The notes beneath the pieces were generated by a model. The model had not been told where the DNA came from, did not search any database, and saw only the letters and a program-made list of their open reading frames with translations. A DNA stretch of 63,893 bases, counting the filler, from Chrysochromulina tobinii (taxonomy: Eukaryota), in NCBI GenBank assembly GCA_001275005.1. It is 6 parts of 6 records of this genome, joined end to end, with 100 filler letters (N's around TTAATTAATTAA, not from the genome) between each part and the next. Parts side by side here need not be neighbours in the genome. Positions count along the whole stretch, not along the records: positions 51,581 to 57,989 come from JWZX01000243.1; 5 more parts are not named here. One strand, 5' to 3'. Shown here in pieces: positions 6,117 to 57,989 of this stretch (position 1 is the first letter of the stretch; every line of letters starts with the position of its first letter). The translations under genes and the position numbers were made by a program.

Positions 6117-9100
6117 TCAGAATCGTCGGAAATCGCCTTGTTCAAGCGGTTTCGTCGCCGGGGCTACGGAAGGGAGAACGGTTCGCCACTTTGACTCATC
6201 CAGGCGAACGGTTCGCCACTTTGACTCATCCACGACGCGCTTCCAGTACTCGTCGCCATCCCTAGCGTTCTGCTCTAGCTGCTCGAGGCGGTCACTGTCC
6301 TGAGTCATTTGTTCATTATTGTAGAGCTTGAAAAACTCGAGCTTCGGCCACTGCTTCTCAAGAAGCTGCTTCTCGAGAAGCCACGCCGGAGGCACCGTGC
6401 CGGTCAATCGGTTGTTGGTCAAATCCACATTTTCGAGCGCCCGGCAGTTTGCGAGCGTGTCCGGAATCGCACCGCTCAGCTGATTGTGGTTCAGGAACAA
6501 ATCCTTAAGCTTCGTCAGGCCCGCTTCCTTGTGCAACCGAGTGAGCTCCTCAAGCCGTGCCTCATCCTTTTTGCCCATCTTGGAGCCGCTTTTCTTGGCC
6601 TCTTCTTTCCGTTTCGCGAGCTCATTCATCTCCTCCTTCTCCATGGCCGACAGGCCACCGAACATCGATGGGATGCAGCCCGTCAGCTTGTTGTTGTCGA
6701 GACAAAGGCGCTCTAGATTTTTGAGCTCGCCGAGCTCTGCAGGCAGCTCGCCAGTGAGCTCGCAGAAGTTGAGGCTCAAAGTTTTGAGCTTCGTCATGAG
6801 CTTGAAGGCCCTCGGGATCGGACCTTTGAGGCTATTATAGCCCAGATGTAGGGTGTCCATGTCTGCACAGGTCGCGAGCTTCTCCGGGAGCGTGCCGTGA
6901 AGTCCACGGCCCTTGAGGTCGAGCCTACGCAGCCGGCGGCAATGGAGCTGCTGGTCCCGCTTGTCGATGAGCAGGTCGTGCAGCGAGCAATTGAAGTCAT
7001 TCAACTTTGACTGCCGCAACGAATCCTCAGTGACAGGAGGCCAATGTTTTTTTCTTGTCCCCTTCCACGCAGCCTGCCACGCAGCCGAAAAGCCTGCCAG
7101 CGAAAGCTCAAGTAGAGGGCACTCGTCCTTCTGCAGCAGCTCTTGTAGCTTCTCCTGATGCCCATCGAGCGTTGCGTAGGGGCACTTGAGGCAGAGCACA
7201 ATGCCCCTACCCGCGCGACAAAGTGCTTGCTCGGTGAGCTGGCCCTGATGCTCAACCGTCTCCGGCTCGAGCGCACCGAGGATGCGCGCTCCCTTGTAAA
7301 GCACGTGAAGATCGTGCTTGAGATCAAAGAGTGGCTTGACGTGCAGCTGCAGCTCGGCGAGGATCCAGCCCGAGTCCTCAAGGTTGAGCCAAAGGTTGAG
7401 AAGGACGTCGCGGTTACCTCCGGCTTTAATTGCGTCGTAGTCGGGCTTGATGCGATCCTTGGCGCGGCAGACAATTGCGCGAGACAAGTGGGGCGATACC
7501 CCCTGATAGCCCTTGTGCTGGTCGTTGCCGGTCCAATGTCGCAGCTTGCCGTCGTCTCCGCTGGTGAGGAATCTCATGGCGACGGCCAACGCGTGCAAGG
7601 ACGGAAAGACAAGGGTGCAACGCACGAGATCGCAAAGCTTCCGGTAGTTGCCGGCATATTCTTCAGCAACCTTGGCGCAGCAGCGCGGCACGCCCTTGAT
7701 TGAAGGGCCCTTGTGTGTCACCTTGCCCTTCGCATCTGGGCACGTTTCCTCAACATGCGTCTGGACCGCCGTCATAACCTTCTCAAGCACTGGAACGGCT
7801 TTCTTCGCCTTGTGGATCAACGCCAGTAGAGTGTTGAGAGCATCGTCGGCGCCGGCGCCACTGGGTTGCACCATTTCCACATTGAGCTTGTTCACCTCTT
7901 CGCAGCGCACCTTCATGTACTCGAGTGCGTCTTTCTTGATTGCCGGTGCATCCTCCTTGTTGCGCTGCTTCTCGTCTTTGAGCAGCTTTGCGTACGCTGC
8001 GTCGAAACGGAAGACCGACTGGCTTAGGAGCGGGTTGTACTGCGAGATCGCGTTGTCACGCCGGTCAGGGTATCTCTTCTCCAACTTCTCCAAGTCCTTC
8101 GCCTTCTCCGAAATTTTCTTCTCGAGCTTTGTGATTTCCTTGTTGTGATTAGCAAGGTCTTGCTCGCGCATCAACTCTGTACCCATTTCCTTCATCTCCT
8201 TGAGCTGATGTGCGAGTTCATCGATGGTGGTCCTCATCCGAGTCTGCGCGTTGAGCATGGCCGAGCATTCCTCCACGCACAATGCCACAGGCACAACGGA
8301 CTTGCTCAGGTTGGACGAATCGAAGTGTTTGAGCAGCGCGTCAGCATCCAGAGGGTCGGGTTCCACTTCCTGCTGCTGCTCTTGCACCTTCGGCGGTTGA
8401 AATTCACCGTCTCGTGAGGAGTCGTCGGATCCTTTGACCGAGTGCAAGGCAACCCTCAGAGCCTCGTCTTGAACCGAATGGTCGAAGAGGAACATCTCGT
8501 CATCTTCCCGGAGCTCCTTTTCGAATCTATCGTGGTGCGATCGGTCCACTTGACCCGGCAGGACCTGCCCATTCGCCGCGCACGGGAACATGTTGTCAAA
8601 CTCTTTGCGTACGAAGTCCACGTTGACATCCCGCCCTGTGGTGAGCGCGCGCAAGCGGCCTCGGCTGTACACCATCTCCCAGGGCGCAAAGCAGCCGCAG
8701 ACAAAGACCTGGTAGTTGTGGTTCGTGCGCGCGCGACTCATCAGTTCTCTCAGGAACTTATCTGGCTCTTTGCCCATTGTGTCGTAGACGACATGGTAGC
8801 CAGCGACGAACGCACGGTCAACAAAGGCGTCCGTCATCTCCTTCTTTTTGTGCGGCCAGAGCATCTTCTGTCGCACGAGGAACTGCGAGCGCATGGTGGC
8901 GCTCGAGAGCGCGAGGTAGTGACCGTCGACAGTGAACCCGTCCTCTTGGAACTGGCCGTCGGGCGAAATCCACTTGGTAGGCTTCAGCCGGTCGCCATAC
9001 TCCTCCTGCACCGACGGCAACTTCGCTGCGTGAGCCCCGGAGATGCACAGGCGGTACTCGCGGCAGTACATTCGACACTCATCGGGGTCGAGGTGTACAA

Positions 9101-51480: not shown

Positions 51481-51580
51481 NNNNNNNNNNNNNNNNNNNN
51501 NNNNNNNNNNNNNNNNNNNNNNNNTTAATTAATTAANNNNNNNNNNNNNNNNNNNNNNNNNNNNNNNNNNNNNNNNNNNN
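51481..51580. other. Artificial contig linker
   Basis: N-run with TTAATTAATTAA core. Confidence 0.98.
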
Positions 51581-52004
51581 CGGGCGGGCGCGCGGGGTCC
51601 GGACGGGACGGGCTGCGGCTGGTCCACGCCACGAAATAATATGGATACACGACCTGAGACGCGAGCTCACACAACGACGCACACGACGTGGACACACACA
51701 TGCACCCCCCCTGCACCAAACGAAAGTCTCTCTCGCCGCGCGGCGCGCGGGCTGCAGCGCGCGCGCCTAGCCCTATCAGGCCTCTCCACACTGCACCCTC
51801 CCCCCGCACGTGCCCGCCTCCTCACCGCAACCGACGGGCAAGCTGCCAGCCCACACGCTCTCGCCCGTGCGCGAGGCGCGGCCGGTCCACAAATAGCACA
51901 GCCCTCTCCTGGTCGTGTCCTCCGGCGGCCGTCCCCAACCGCCGCGGGGCGTAAGCGCCCGAGCGGGCTGTGTGAATACGCTGTGAATGCGCTCCTGCGA
52001 GCGC

Positions 52005-53000
52005 TCACGCGAGCGCGACGCGCTCATTCTCCATCATGGCGGCGACGGCGGGAGTGAGCGTCACGCCGCCCACCCGCTTGTACTCGCCCGGCTCGCACAC
52101 CACCGGCACCGAGTAGAAGAAGCCCTCGCCCATGCCGTAGTCGCCCGTGGCAGGCACACCCATCGACACCCATTTGCCGTCGGAGCCGAAGACCAAGGCC
52201 TTCATGTGCGCGACGACCGCGTCGGCGGTCAGGGTGGCCGGGGCAGGCCCCACCTTTGGCAGCGGCTCCTCCGTCACCTTGAGCGCCCACTTGCCGCCAA
52301 CAGTCGCGTGCGACACGTCAGCGACGCCCCTGCCCCACGCGATCACATTGGACACTTCGTGCGCAGGCACTTTGGCGGCGTCGGCGAGCGCCTTGGCGGC
52401 GGCGAGCTCGACGTGAAGCGTGACGGCCGTCACGGTCGCCTTGGTCGCCTTGGCGACCTTCGTGGCCTCAGCGCAGGACATCACCGCCACAAGCGCGCCG
52501 GCATCTGCGCCCGAAGCGTCGCCCTCGAGCGCGAGCACGTACTTGGCGCCCTTGACTCCGCCGGAGCTCACGCCCGCGAGGAGCGGGAATCCGCAGCCCT
52601 TGAGCTCCGCGGTAACCGCGTCATTCGCACCCGCAAGCACCAGGTTGACCGGCTGGTCGAGGCCGAGCATCTCGCCCGACGCGATGCGGAAGAGCACGCT
52701 GGCGCCGACCTCGGAACCGGCGCCGAGCACGGCGACGGTGACGGGCGGCTTGGCGGGCTTGGACTCGAGCATCGCCCACACCCACGCCATGTTGTCCGCC
52801 TTGACCTTATCGATGGTCGCGGCGAACGCCGGGTTGCCCTTGATCAGCGCGTCGACCTGGGAGTACGTGGAGGCGCCCGACTTGTCGACCGCCTCGCTGA
52901 TGGCCTTCAGCTCGGGGACGAGCGCCTTGACGCTCGCTGCCTTGATGGCCATCGTGCGCACGTGCGCGCGCGCGCTCAGGCGGACCGTCTGGGAAAGCAT
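52005..53000 (-). CDS. Degenerate MDH1-type malate dehydrogenase homolog (probable pseudoenzyme) with mitochondrial presequence-like N-terminus
   Basis: [41 protein letters not shown] and WVSMGV...G.YG..EG..YS.PV.C match cytosolic/bacterial-type MDH, but the substrate loop and catalytic D/H are missing. The N-terminus is Arg/Ser-rich and acid-free. Confidence 0.8.
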
Positions 53001-53236
53001 GGCTCAGCGAAGTCCTGCTCAGACCCAAGAGGGCTGTGGCACTGTGAACGTGAAAAGATGAATTGCTAAGACGATCACCCCCCCCACTTGCGAAACCCAT
53101 CTCACCCGACGGAAAGCGTGCCCTTGATGCCCATCCTCTGACTTTCGAACTCGCCCATGAGCGGTCAGCTTCGTCGCTTGATTTCATCAAGAACGTCACC
53201 CGACTGTGCACCCCGACCGAGTCGCTCCCCAGACAA
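53001..53236. promoter_or_regulatory. Putative bidirectional promoter between the two MDH-family genes
   Basis: 236 bp between divergent ATGs at 53000 (-) and 53237 (+); positional inference only. Confidence 0.5.
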
Positions 53237-54372
53237 ATGCTGCGCGCTGCCTCCTCCTCGGCCCGCACCGCGTCGCGCGCGCTGACGACGGTGACCGCCG
53301 AGCGCGGCATCAAGGTGGCCGTGCTCGGCGCGGCTGGCGGCATCGGCCAGCCGCTATCCATGCTTTGCAAGCTCTCGCCGCTCATCGACGAAGTTGGCTG
53401 CTATGACGTCGTGGGCACGCCCGGCGTGGCCGCGGACCTGTCGCACATTCCCAGCAAGGCGAAGATCACGGGCAACCTGCCGTCGTCCGGCACCTGGCCG
53501 CCCTCGGGCAACAAAGGCCTCGAGGCCGCGCTCACGGGCGCCGACATCGTCATCATCCCGGCAGGCGTGCCGCGCAAGCCGGGCATGACGCGCGACGACC
53601 TGTTCAACACGAACGCGGGCATCGTGAAGACGCTCGTCGAGGGCTGCGCGAAGTTCTGCCCCAACGCTGTCCTCGGCATCATCTCCAACCCGGTCAACTC
53701 GACAGTGCCCATCGCGGCCGAGGTGCTCAAAAAGGCGGGCGTCTACAACCCGAAGAAGTTGTTGGGCGTGACGACGCTCGACGTGTGCCGCGCGAACACG
53801 TTCGTGGCCGAGAACCAGAACATGGACGTGAGCAAGCTCAACGTGCCCGTCATCGGAGGCCACGCGGGCATCACTATCCTGCCGCTTCTCTCGCAGGTGC
53901 CGTGTGCCAAATTGAGCGACGCCGACCCGAGCGTCGTGATGGCCTCTGATTGCCTCTGATTGGGCTTGATTGCCTCCCTCATCAGGTGCCGGGTGCCAAA
54001 TTCAGCGACGCCGACCGCGAGAAGCTCACAGTGCGCATCCAGTTTGGTGGCGACGAGGTGGTGGCGGCGAAGGCGGGATCGGGCTCAGCAACCCTCTCGA
54101 TGGCGTACGCGGGCTTCCTCTTCACCGAGGGGCTCATCAAGGGCATGAAGGGCGAGGATGTCACCATGTGCGCGTACGTGGAGAGCACGATCACGGAGGC
54201 GTCCTTTTTCGCGTCGCCGGTGAAGTTCGGCCCCGAGGGTGTGAAAGAGGTGCTCGGCTTCGGCACGCTCTCCGCGTACGAGAAGGTGTGGTTCGACAAG
54301 ATGATCCCGGACCTCAAGAAGCAGATCGCCAAGGGCATCGAGTTCGCCAACGCCAAGCCCGCCGCCGCCTAA
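53237..54372 (+). CDS. MDH2: Mitochondrial malate dehydrogenase; exons 53237-53896 and 53986-54372
   Basis: Presequence [72 protein letters not shown]; exon 2 has [22 protein letters not shown] phase-0 GT-AG intron joins the frames. Confidence 0.97.
53897..53985 (+). other. 89-nt GT-AG intron whose 5' part duplicates the downstream exon
   Basis: cag|gtgccg...cctcatcag|gtgccg; removing it restores a continuous MDH sequence (LLSQ|VPGAKF). Confidence 0.92.
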
Positions 54373-54507: not shown

Positions 54508-54652
54508 AGCGGGGCAGCTCTAGAGGCCAGCAGGCAAAGAGTACCTCCTGAACTAAACTTCCTTGTCAACTACTTTCTGCGGACTTTATTTCTTTGTGGT
54601 CGCGTGAGGTCATCTGCTATTCCCAAGCGCCCTCCGTCGCACCGCATCCGCC

Positions 54653-55639
54653 ATGGTGAATAACGAGCGTTTGAACCGGCTTCCCTCGCTCGCGACCCAT
54701 GTGCCCCGCCCACTATCGTCATGTATCCTGTCACCCGCCGCAGGCCGACGAGGACCTGCCCAGGCCCGAGGAGATCGAGGTCGAGTTTCAGGACCTCTAC
54801 CGCCATGATGAGGAGCAAGCCTACTGCACCTTGATGGCGCAAGACATCAAGTCGATCAATTTCCCGTGCGAGGAAAACTACACCGTCCGCCTCTGCGTAA
54901 GCCAAAGCCGCCCCAATACCCCTTCTTGGCACGCCAAGAGCGCTCACAGCGAGCCCTCCCGTGGCCCACATGCTCACAGAAGGAGCTGGTCACCTACCAC
55001 AACCCCAGCACACATCCGATGGGCTCGTTCGAGCTGATCGCATCGAACCGCATCCGCTCGGATGAGGAGACGCTCGGCGAGGTCTTCAACGGCCAGCCGT
55101 ATTACACGGACAAGGAGCCCGCTGAGGACCCCGACTTTGACTGGGTGCCGCGCAAGGAGCAAGTCTTCTCGGACAAGCAGCTGATGCAGCTATCGGTGTG
55201 GAAGAAGGAGTGGGACGACGATACGAACTCGTACGAGCCGATCGACCTCGGCTACAAGCCATACGGCTACCAGCAGACGCGCACCTGGAAGAAGCTTGGG
55301 TTCTTGGATGAGGAAGGCAAGCTGAAGTCGGAGGGTCAACTGATCGAAGAGGGTAAGGTCACAGACCCTGAGGACGTTGCCAACTACTACAAGAAGCAGG
55401 ATACGATCAAGGTGCTGCGGGAGGAGTACTGCTTCAAGCGCGCACATGCGGTCGAGTGCGTTAACGACAAGGCCCTGAAGGAGAAGGGCTCGGTCGAGGA
55501 GGCGCTCGAGTGGTTACGATTCCACAAGGAGAGGGATTTTGACGAGGCGATGGCGCTGAAGAAGAAGAAGGATGAGGGCGAGGAGATCACGGTGGTCGAG
55601 AAGGAGGATGAGGGCAAGGAAGAGGACTTCGACAAGTGA
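54653..55639 (+). CDS. Three-exon acidic protein, possibly with a ubiquitin-like N-terminus and UBA-like C-terminus (exons 54653-54655, 54744-54896, 54980-55639)
   Basis: GT-AG introns 54656-54743 (ATG|gtgaat...ccgcag) and 54897-54979 (gtaagc...cacag) join ORFs 54699 and 54866 in phase. The C-terminal L.E..F.R..A.E.......SVEEALEWL is UBA-like. Confidence 0.7.
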
Positions 55640-56036
55640 GCATCATGACCCGCTGGCTCAGGACGAGGCGGCGCGGTTTAAATGAGTGCGTTTCTGCCCC
55701 GCACCATTAGTACAGATCAGTCAGTTAGGGTTGCGTATAATTTTTCGAACACGGAAGGCTCGGAGTCGTCGGTCATTGTCGTCGGTGGGACTTAAGTTTC
55801 GACTAATCTCTAATGCAGTAGCTCACGCCACCCGGGAGGCACCAAAGCCATGGTTCGAAGCTCAAAAAGGCGCCCACCATCCGCACCGCGACGAAGGAGC
55901 GGACTGTAAGAGACAGTCGTGATGCTGGCGCGATCGCGAATAAAACATGAACAAACGACAAGTGCTCGCTTTTGCTCGCGTCTGAAACGCGATGCATGTC
56001 GGGCGAGGCGTTGGTGGGCATGCCTTGGAGACAGCC

Positions 56037-56830: not shown

Positions 56831-57766
56831 TCACTTGAAGACGGCGACGGTGAGCGGCACCTCCCTCAGATGCACCTGGAAGAGGCCGCCACCCATCTCC
56901 ATCGCGTCGACCACCTTGAGCTTCGTGCCTGGGTAGAGCAAGACCTCCGCCTCGCTCGCTACGCCCTGGAACGCCGAGTAGCGCTGCAGGTCGACGCCGT
57001 GCACGATCTCGATCATGAAGACGGTGCGCACGCCGCTGGTGCCGAGGAACATCGGGTTCGTCAGCGTATGCAGCTGCTTGGTCGTCGACGAGAAGGCCCA
57101 CCACCAGACCTCCTTGTCCTTGGGGTACTGGGCGCGCAGGTCGACGCCCTTGACGCCGCGCCAGACGGAGCCCGTGTACTTGGGCAGCTTGCTGCGCGCC
57201 GTCAGCATCAGCTGCAGGTACGGGAAGAAGGGAATGAGGGCGGAGCGGTCGCGTGTGCGCAGCAGTTGGTTGAGCGTCGGGTAGAAGTCGCTCTGTGCCG
57301 TGTACAGCCACAGCGCGCCCGCCTCGTCCGCGTCGAGGCCGTGCGGATCGGCCGCGGCAAGCTGCGCCCCCGCCTCACTCGCCATGAAGGCGTGCGCGTC
57401 GATGTCTTCGACGCCGCTCGCCGCCGCCGCGTCCATGAGCGACAAGCGCACGCACTTCATCACCCCTGTGATCGGGCCCATGAGCTCGAGCGGCTCGTCG
57501 GAGACGTCGGCGATGCGTGCCTGCTGGGCCACACTCTCTGGCGCAGCCTTCGCGGCCGTCGCCTTCGCGGCCGCCTTCTTCTCGGCCGCCGCCTTGTCCG
57601 CCGCCGCCTTGTCGGCCGCCGCCTTGACGGCTGCCGCCTTCTCAGCCGCCACCTTCGCGGCCGCCGCCTTGTCGGCTGCCGCCTTGTCGGCCGCCACCTT
57701 CTCGGCCGCCGCCTTGTCGGCCGCCGCCTTGTCGGCCGCCACCTTCGCGGCCGCCGCCTTGTCCCA
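56831..57766 (-). CDS. NAD:arginine-type ADP-ribosyltransferase (R-S-E clade) with (AAADK)n linker; 5' part unresolved
   Basis: LWLYT....FY..LN..LR, VWRGV (R), WAFSSTT (S), FLG..G.RT.F.I, YSAF....EAEVLL.PG (ExE). A probable acceptor cacag lies at 57767-57771 and the upstream exon(s) are not identified. Confidence 0.88.
57545..57765. repeat. 15-nt-period low-complexity coding repeat (AAA[DE]K/VAA[DE]K)
   Basis: ccgccgccttgtcgg-type units in tandem. Confidence 0.85.
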
Positions 57767-57989
57767 CCTGTGTCGAAGCGCACGGGGAACGCACGCTGTT
57801 GGCGCTGAGCAGTGGCGCCCATCACGGCGCGTCATCGCATGCCATCAGGAAGCGCGAGGGCTTGCGAAGGGCGGTCGTGAAGCTGGCAAGGCAGTCACAG
57901 AGGCAGAGGAGGCAGCAGCGCCCTCTCCGAGGACAACGGCGTGGGGCGACGGCGTGGGGCGACCGAGTGCTGCCTGAGTGCTGCTGAGT

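Follow-up and report, generated by a model that had tools for sequence, protein, structure and literature searches.

A catalytically dead malate dehydrogenase from a haptophyte alga, a candidate structural subunit of the mitochondrial ATP synthase

The haptophyte Chrysochromulina tobinii encodes, head-to-head with a canonical mitochondrial malate dehydrogenase (MDH2), an MDH1-type protein that belongs to a conserved family of dead enzymes. This family descends from a clade of eukaryotic MDH1 enzymes with presequences, to which the ATP-synthase-bound enzyme of Acanthamoeba also belongs, an ancestry that is the new element here. By analogy with that enzyme, the dead MDH may once have been an active mitochondrial MDH tethered to ATP synthase, whose catalysis was lost and which was kept as a structural subunit, a reading whose chances we put at about even.

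The gene pair and its surroundings

The window, by which we mean the whole stretch of 63,893 nt that was analysed, contains the dead MDH and MDH2 genes with 236 bp between their divergent start codons (Table 1). The preliminary description had seen an intact ORF with strong codon bias facing a complete MDH2, and both observations hold: the ORF runs for 331 uninterrupted codons at a GC3 of 0.91 (0.62-0.91 for 15 other ORFs of the window), and MDH2 (53237-54372, plus strand) yields a spliced product of 348 aa with intact catalytic motifs. RNA-library contigs, which are silent on transcript starts, strand, and level and whose four runs may be one campaign, cover 51706-53012, including the dead-MDH ORF, without a joint, and none of those in the four runs covered spacer positions 53013-53198. 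The two genes belong to different MDH clades, and a BLASTP comparison of the dead MDH with MDH2 exon 1 gave no significant match (best E 0.37); the pair is thus not a recent duplicate, which agrees with the earlier statement that it is no simple tandem duplication.

Table 1. Features of the divergent gene pair (positions counted along the window)
Feature	Position	Strand	Basis or remark
Catalytically dead MDH1-type gene	52005..53000	-	One uninterrupted ORF, 331 aa, intronless
Likely mitochondrial presequence, residues 1-17	52950..53000	-	Basic, acidic-free start in 16/16 members; pLDDT <50; putative targeting role
Helical N-terminal extension, residues 18-82	52755..52949	-	Likely homologue of the ATP-synthase-tethering extension of Acanthamoeba mito-MDH
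MDH1 fold without catalytic and NAD-binding residues, residues 83-331	52008..52754	-	Structure match and alignment
Spacer, 236 bp, between divergent start codons	53001..53236	.	Likely contains both promoters; putative promoter role
MDH2 exon 1 (canonical mitochondrial-type MDH)	53237..53896	+	RNA-library contigs, catalytic motifs
MDH2 intron, 89 nt, GT-AG	53897..53985	+	Joined across in 4/4 RNA-library runs
MDH2 exon 2	53986..54372	+	RNA-library contigs, catalytic motifs

The adjacency, seen in one genome, may mean that two mitochondrial energy genes are controlled together or that their products are genuine partners, or it may be due to chance. A metagenome scan returned 80 loci, mostly bacterial MDH, among which the same-species locus L001 ends 60 bp upstream of the ATG and L002 is a 1.1-kb partial orthologue; two scans of viral contigs gave no match. 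Four further runs searched at 80% contained near-identical strain pieces over the dead MDH, none of which, among the contigs listed, bridged both genes.

Several further features of the locus were recorded. At 51481-51580, some 420 bp beyond the dead-MDH stop, a run of N with a short spacer truncates an upstream coiled-coil gene and leaves the finding unaffected. The first bases of the MDH2 intron nearly duplicate the beginning of exon 2 (29/36 bases) and are followed by a short repeat common to hundreds of other contigs, and the intron looks like a gain by duplication or by insertion of a repeat element. Directly downstream of MDH2, a spliced gene covered by RNA-library contigs (54616-55781, plus strand) encodes an acidic product without a Pfam match. 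Elsewhere, two minus-strand regions encode, respectively, an AAADK repeat followed by an ADP-ribosyltransferase (ART) domain (56831-57835) and a fusion of leucine-rich repeats with a zeta-toxin-like P-loop domain (6117-9677).

A conserved family without an active site

The dead MDH retains the fold of an MDH1-type enzyme, as had been proposed for it. Specifically, its best PDB sequence matches are MDH1-type (E 4e-28), its AlphaFold2 model (pLDDT 89.7) superimposes on MDH1-type structures with Z 28.1 and rmsd 1.9 over 249 aligned residues, and Pfam Ldh_1_C scores 27.4 bits, above the cut-off; the ESM Atlas returned generic MDH clusters only, for P0001 and P0126. The motif losses listed previously are all present: GAAGQIG has become GAGSEVG, the PRK.GMER substrate loop is deleted, GNPxN is shortened, TRLD..RA reads TLHVELAA, and WGNHS reads WGRG. 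In addition, some 17 aa are missing, and with them the helix that precedes the SSAAS motif. The extra helical segment of some 60 residues and the presequence-like N-terminus of the first account were likewise recovered, the former as residues ~18-82, modelled as helix at a pLDDT of about 90, and the latter as a start with 4-5 basic and 0 acidic residues within the first 20 aa in 16/16 family members examined.

These losses are common to a family that comprises 39 of 55 matches (P0002-P0040) among 7997 candidates. For residue counts, 42 members were aligned, and two sequences with the look of chimeras or retained introns (P0028, P0031) were left out. The catalytic His, the catalytic Asp, and the substrate Arg are each kept in 0/42 members, both loop arginines in 0/41 (the loop being deleted), the ribose-binding acidic residue in 0/41, and the central glycine of the Rossmann GxxGxxG motif in 1/39; the roles of these residues we take to be established MDH knowledge. 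The residues that replace the NAD-binding positions are small, variable, and non-polar. With catalytic and substrate residues gone from the whole family, the proteins are predicted to be non-catalytic, as originally suggested. Scaffold residues persist (for example, the W of GKW in 41/42), as does the first Rossmann glycine (36/39), and conservation is highest in the C-terminal sheet (0.83, compared with 0.47-0.66 in the extension). The FRIASG and FPLL segments are kept, the ELxD Asp survives in 4/41 members, and the QRG-bearing helix is deleted in 42/42; these four elements are presumably parts of the MDH1 dimer interface.

The preliminary description had called for checks of conservation and dN/dS, and both speak for selection: all 42 members have open frames and common deletions at 38-98% identity, and dN/dS is about 0.33 over 112 codons, measured against one distant orthologue with DNA. 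We conclude that the dead MDH is, on this sequence evidence, a selected pseudoenzyme with a likely mitochondrial presequence. One member of the 90% cluster of the window protein is labelled Chrysochromulina parva, and a different cluster has a 55-aa fragment under the label Heterocapsa. From the former label, and from the kinship with an enzyme of Diacronema lutheri described below, we infer that the family ranges across haptophytes. The literature within reach of our search, largely outside the subscription journals, gave no description of this dead MDH1-type family.

Other dead MDH1 proteins were encountered. A second, shorter subfamily (P0124, P0126, P0135, P0155) carries a presequence and is without the helical extension; in the mixture-model tree described below, P0126 has a long branch and is placed inside the dead family. 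Further, P0169 is an independent dead MDH1 paralogue that, by eye, has its extension in common with the active P0133, which is labelled as a locust protein, yet falls in the protist clade and is probably a contaminant. Catalytic loss has occurred more than once in the eukaryotic presequence-bearing MDH1 clade.

Ancestry and the N-terminal extension

The active proteins nearest to the dead family are the Diacronema lutheri enzyme KAG8462653 and a few others, including P0384/P0385. In a mixture-model tree of 41 chosen rows, the dead family was supported at 100/99 and joined with the Diacronema-type and P0384/P0385 active enzymes at 100/97, and this group fell inside a 30-row eukaryotic clade (99/96) together with the Acanthamoeba-like P0272 and the Naegleria-like P0045, the latter of which matches PDB 6UM4. 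AU tests on groups named after the tree was seen, in which the dead-family stem is long (0.98), rejected both the grouping of the dead family with three cytosolic-type MDH1 rows (p 0.00015) and its placement outside the eukaryotic clade (p 0.0004). A quick 92-row tree also joined the dead family to the Diacronema type, with both in an open fork outside the clade; once the dead rows and 21 others were removed, a 38-row eukaryotic clade (100/98) took in the Diacronema type. When the Diacronema enzyme was used as query, the best 120 of 8000 scored sequences included five clusters at 77-100% and three at 63-69%, followed by bacteria-like matches, and no active orthologue named as a prymnesiophyte. 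The scarcity of active orthologues among these matches fits a history in which the dead copy replaced the active one.

The one characterised member of the clade that carries such an extension is the mitochondrial MDH of Acanthamoeba castellanii (AcMito-MDH), which is an active dimer seated on top of OSCP in the ATP synthase, each monomer being tethered by a 76-residue, three-helix N-terminal extension wrapped round the MASA helix (PMC13632647, Cell 2026). The enzyme is catalytically active and tuned by ATP/ADP, and the authors call the link Acanthamoeba-specific (PMC13632647); a second paper gives confirmation of the association by IP-MS (PMC13632651). The clamp requires the dimer. The printed AcMito-MDH sequence is MDH1-type; by eye, P0272 agrees with it, and both P0272 and the published enzyme have His294 (PMC13632647). 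P0134, an earlier candidate for the Acanthamoeba enzyme, was dropped after a check of the printed sequence. The Acanthamoeba structures 9ZFT-9ZFX were absent from our PDB sequence and fold matches.

To compare the extensions, a profile was grown from that of P0272 with active enzymes only (41/96 segments joined) and run on 1861 sequences, namely 35 dead-family extensions (from the 35/44 alignment rows of sufficient length) and 1826 decoys. Dead-family extensions took every one of the top 10 places; 10/35 dead-family extensions exceeded 8 bits versus 1/1826 decoys, and 17/35 exceeded 5 bits versus 6/1826, the 35 segments being amphipathic helices related to each other. The P0001 extension scored a modest 11.0 bits (E 0.036). 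Aligned with hhalign, the two extension profiles scored 20.8 (P 0.001), as against 8.9 when reversed and 6.3 +/- 1.0 (maximum 8.6) over 100 column shuffles. With the direction of the search reversed, the two highest scorers among 58 active segments both belong to the Acanthamoeba-seeded set. The dead-family profile had no active match in the first 262 proteins, its matches being found only among proteins added later. Among active proteins, P0385, which is in neither profile, bridges the two: the dead-family profile gives it 33.2 bits (E 6e-9) and the Acanthamoeba-seeded profile 14.3 bits (E 0.003). P0386 scored 14.5 and 15.3 bits, respectively, where the best window decoys reached 8.5-8.8 bits and one reversed control 10.1 on the dead-family profile.

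The predicted layout is also common to both models: helix 1, a Gly, a 10-residue helix 2, a break, and a Pro-started helix 3, with helix 2 and the Pro at 46-55 and P57 in one versus 66-75 and P77 in the other. The full-length profiles align through this layout, in an alignment that includes P0385 and P0386. The extension of the dead family is therefore likely, at moderate strength and on profile and model evidence, to be homologous to the Acanthamoeba tether. It is not universal, as several members of the eukaryotic clade, like the short dead subfamily, are without an extension, and the four Diacronema-type extensions tested and that of the Naegleria-like P0045 matched neither profile. Dozens of active MDH1 proteins with a presequence and an Acanthamoeba-like extension were also seen, including Balamuthia P0342, and this type of extension is, judging by sequence, much wider than one species.

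Possible roles and closest known systems

The ATP-synthase reading can be put as a sequence of steps. An ancestral mitochondrial MDH1, held on the ATP synthase by a helical arm, would have had both a catalytic and a structural job. In the lineage of the dead MDH, MDH2 would have taken over TCA catalysis, so that the tethered copy could lose its active site yet stay as a building block, with selection keeping the structural job only. The dead MDH would be imported into mitochondria, as its presequence-like start suggests, and would be held near OSCP by its helical extension via an adaptor helix, as in Acanthamoeba. Haptophytes and amoebozoans are listed among the groups that lack a detectable subunit h and whose peripheral stalks could not be modelled from known subunits (PMC10214729), which leaves room for undiscovered subunits in the haptophyte ATP synthase. 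Against this reading we count that the link to ATP synthase is by homology to a single organism, that direct extension scores are modest, that the Diacronema-type and Naegleria-like extensions matched neither profile, and that two of the putative dimer-interface elements are eroded; a homodimer prediction for residues 18-331 scored 0.01 against a mark of 0.42 and weighs neither for nor against. Of the two roles first proposed, that of an accessory subunit of a respiratory complex has gained specific support, for ATP synthase, while that of a regulator or scaffold of MDH2 finds no backing apart from the adjacency itself.

If the ATP-synthase reading is true, a lineage-specific subunit would be named for the unstudied ATP synthase of a major marine algal group, and the connection of MDH with ATP synthase would be no Acanthamoeba oddity, spanning instead distant groups of eukaryotes. 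The active, tethered enzyme of Acanthamoeba, the active relatives (P0385, Diacronema), and the dead MDH would then form an evolutionary series, illustrating how an enzyme whose chemistry passes to another one becomes a purely structural subunit. As a long shot, the tether may be an ancient protist feature, and the dead prymnesiophyte subunit of ATP synthase may dock the active MDH2 encoded head-to-head with it, thereby keeping the TCA cycle connected to OXPHOS.

Unlikely, though to be taken seriously, is that the protein is a non-catalytic structural or adaptor subunit of another mitochondrial assembly, such as complex I, the ribosome, or a metabolon, its inherited extension binding something else. 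Dead enzymes are often recruited into such complexes, and the strongest conservation lies in the C-terminal sheet rather than in the extension. MDH1B acts as a structural strut in ciliary radial spoke 3 (bioRxiv 2025.05.19.654877). However, the sole characterised clade member with the extension binds ATP synthase through it (PMC13632647), and the main dead family retains the extension throughout.

Less probable still is that the protein binds or regulates the neighbouring MDH2, whether as a free protein or as one that docks MDH2 onto ATP synthase. The genes are head-to-head and both are covered by RNA-library contigs, and the adjacency stands out, given that no other TCA/OXPHOS family was found among the 25 window ORFs scanned. 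Yet the two proteins belong to different clades with no significant pairwise match, we know of no MDH1-MDH2 heterodimer, and the linkage comes from one genome, at a locus singled out partly for that adjacency, which the ATP-synthase reading does not need.

It is improbable, in our view, that the dead MDH forms a heterodimer as its silent member, the other member being either an active MDH1 paralogue or the short dead one. Such pairing has a precedent in MDH1/MDH1B (bioRxiv 2025.05.19.654877), an extension-less dead subfamily does exist, and the unrelated dead P0169 has an extension like that of the active P0133; against it, however, the best 120 of 8000 scored sequences contained no active orthologue with a prymnesiophyte name, and P0126 sits on a long branch inside the dead family. 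A sensor or altered enzyme that retains nucleotide binding or has changed chemistry is very improbable: the Rossmann fold and its first glycine are kept, but the central glycine and the ribose-binding acidic residue have given way to small, variable, non-polar residues. A decaying pseudogene, for which one might cite the long stem branch and the several deletions, is excluded by the family-wide conservation, together with the dN/dS and GC3 values.

Among known systems, the dead MDH resembles AcMito-MDH, with which it shares the MDH1-type eukaryotic clade, a presequence-like start, and a predicted three-helix extension that matches in profile and layout. Unlike AcMito-MDH, which is active and ATP/ADP-tuned (PMC13632647), the dead MDH has lost the entire active site, carries an additional short helix rich in Trp, and sits in a haptophyte alga that also has MDH2. 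With the active P0385 it has in common the extension, including the Trp motif, and a C-terminal signature. In contrast to the dead MDH, KAG8462653 and P0384/P0385 keep all catalytic motifs, and the Diacronema-type extension is longer. A further comparison is with MDH1B of ciliary radial spoke 3, likewise a divergent MDH1-fold protein that serves as a structural strut via an added N-terminal domain (bioRxiv 2025.05.19.654877). MDH1B, a derivative of cytosolic MDH1 whose N-terminal domain is globular, differs in being ciliary and a heterodimer partner of MDH1, and is weakly similar to the dead MDH (PDB match E 0.014). The two probably have independent origins; in our tree, where three cytosolic-type MDH1 rows stood in for MDH1B, a grouping of the dead MDH with these rows was rejected (p 0.00015). 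By analogy, then, the dead MDH is most likely AcMito-MDH-like in its structural role, without the catalytic feature of that enzyme.
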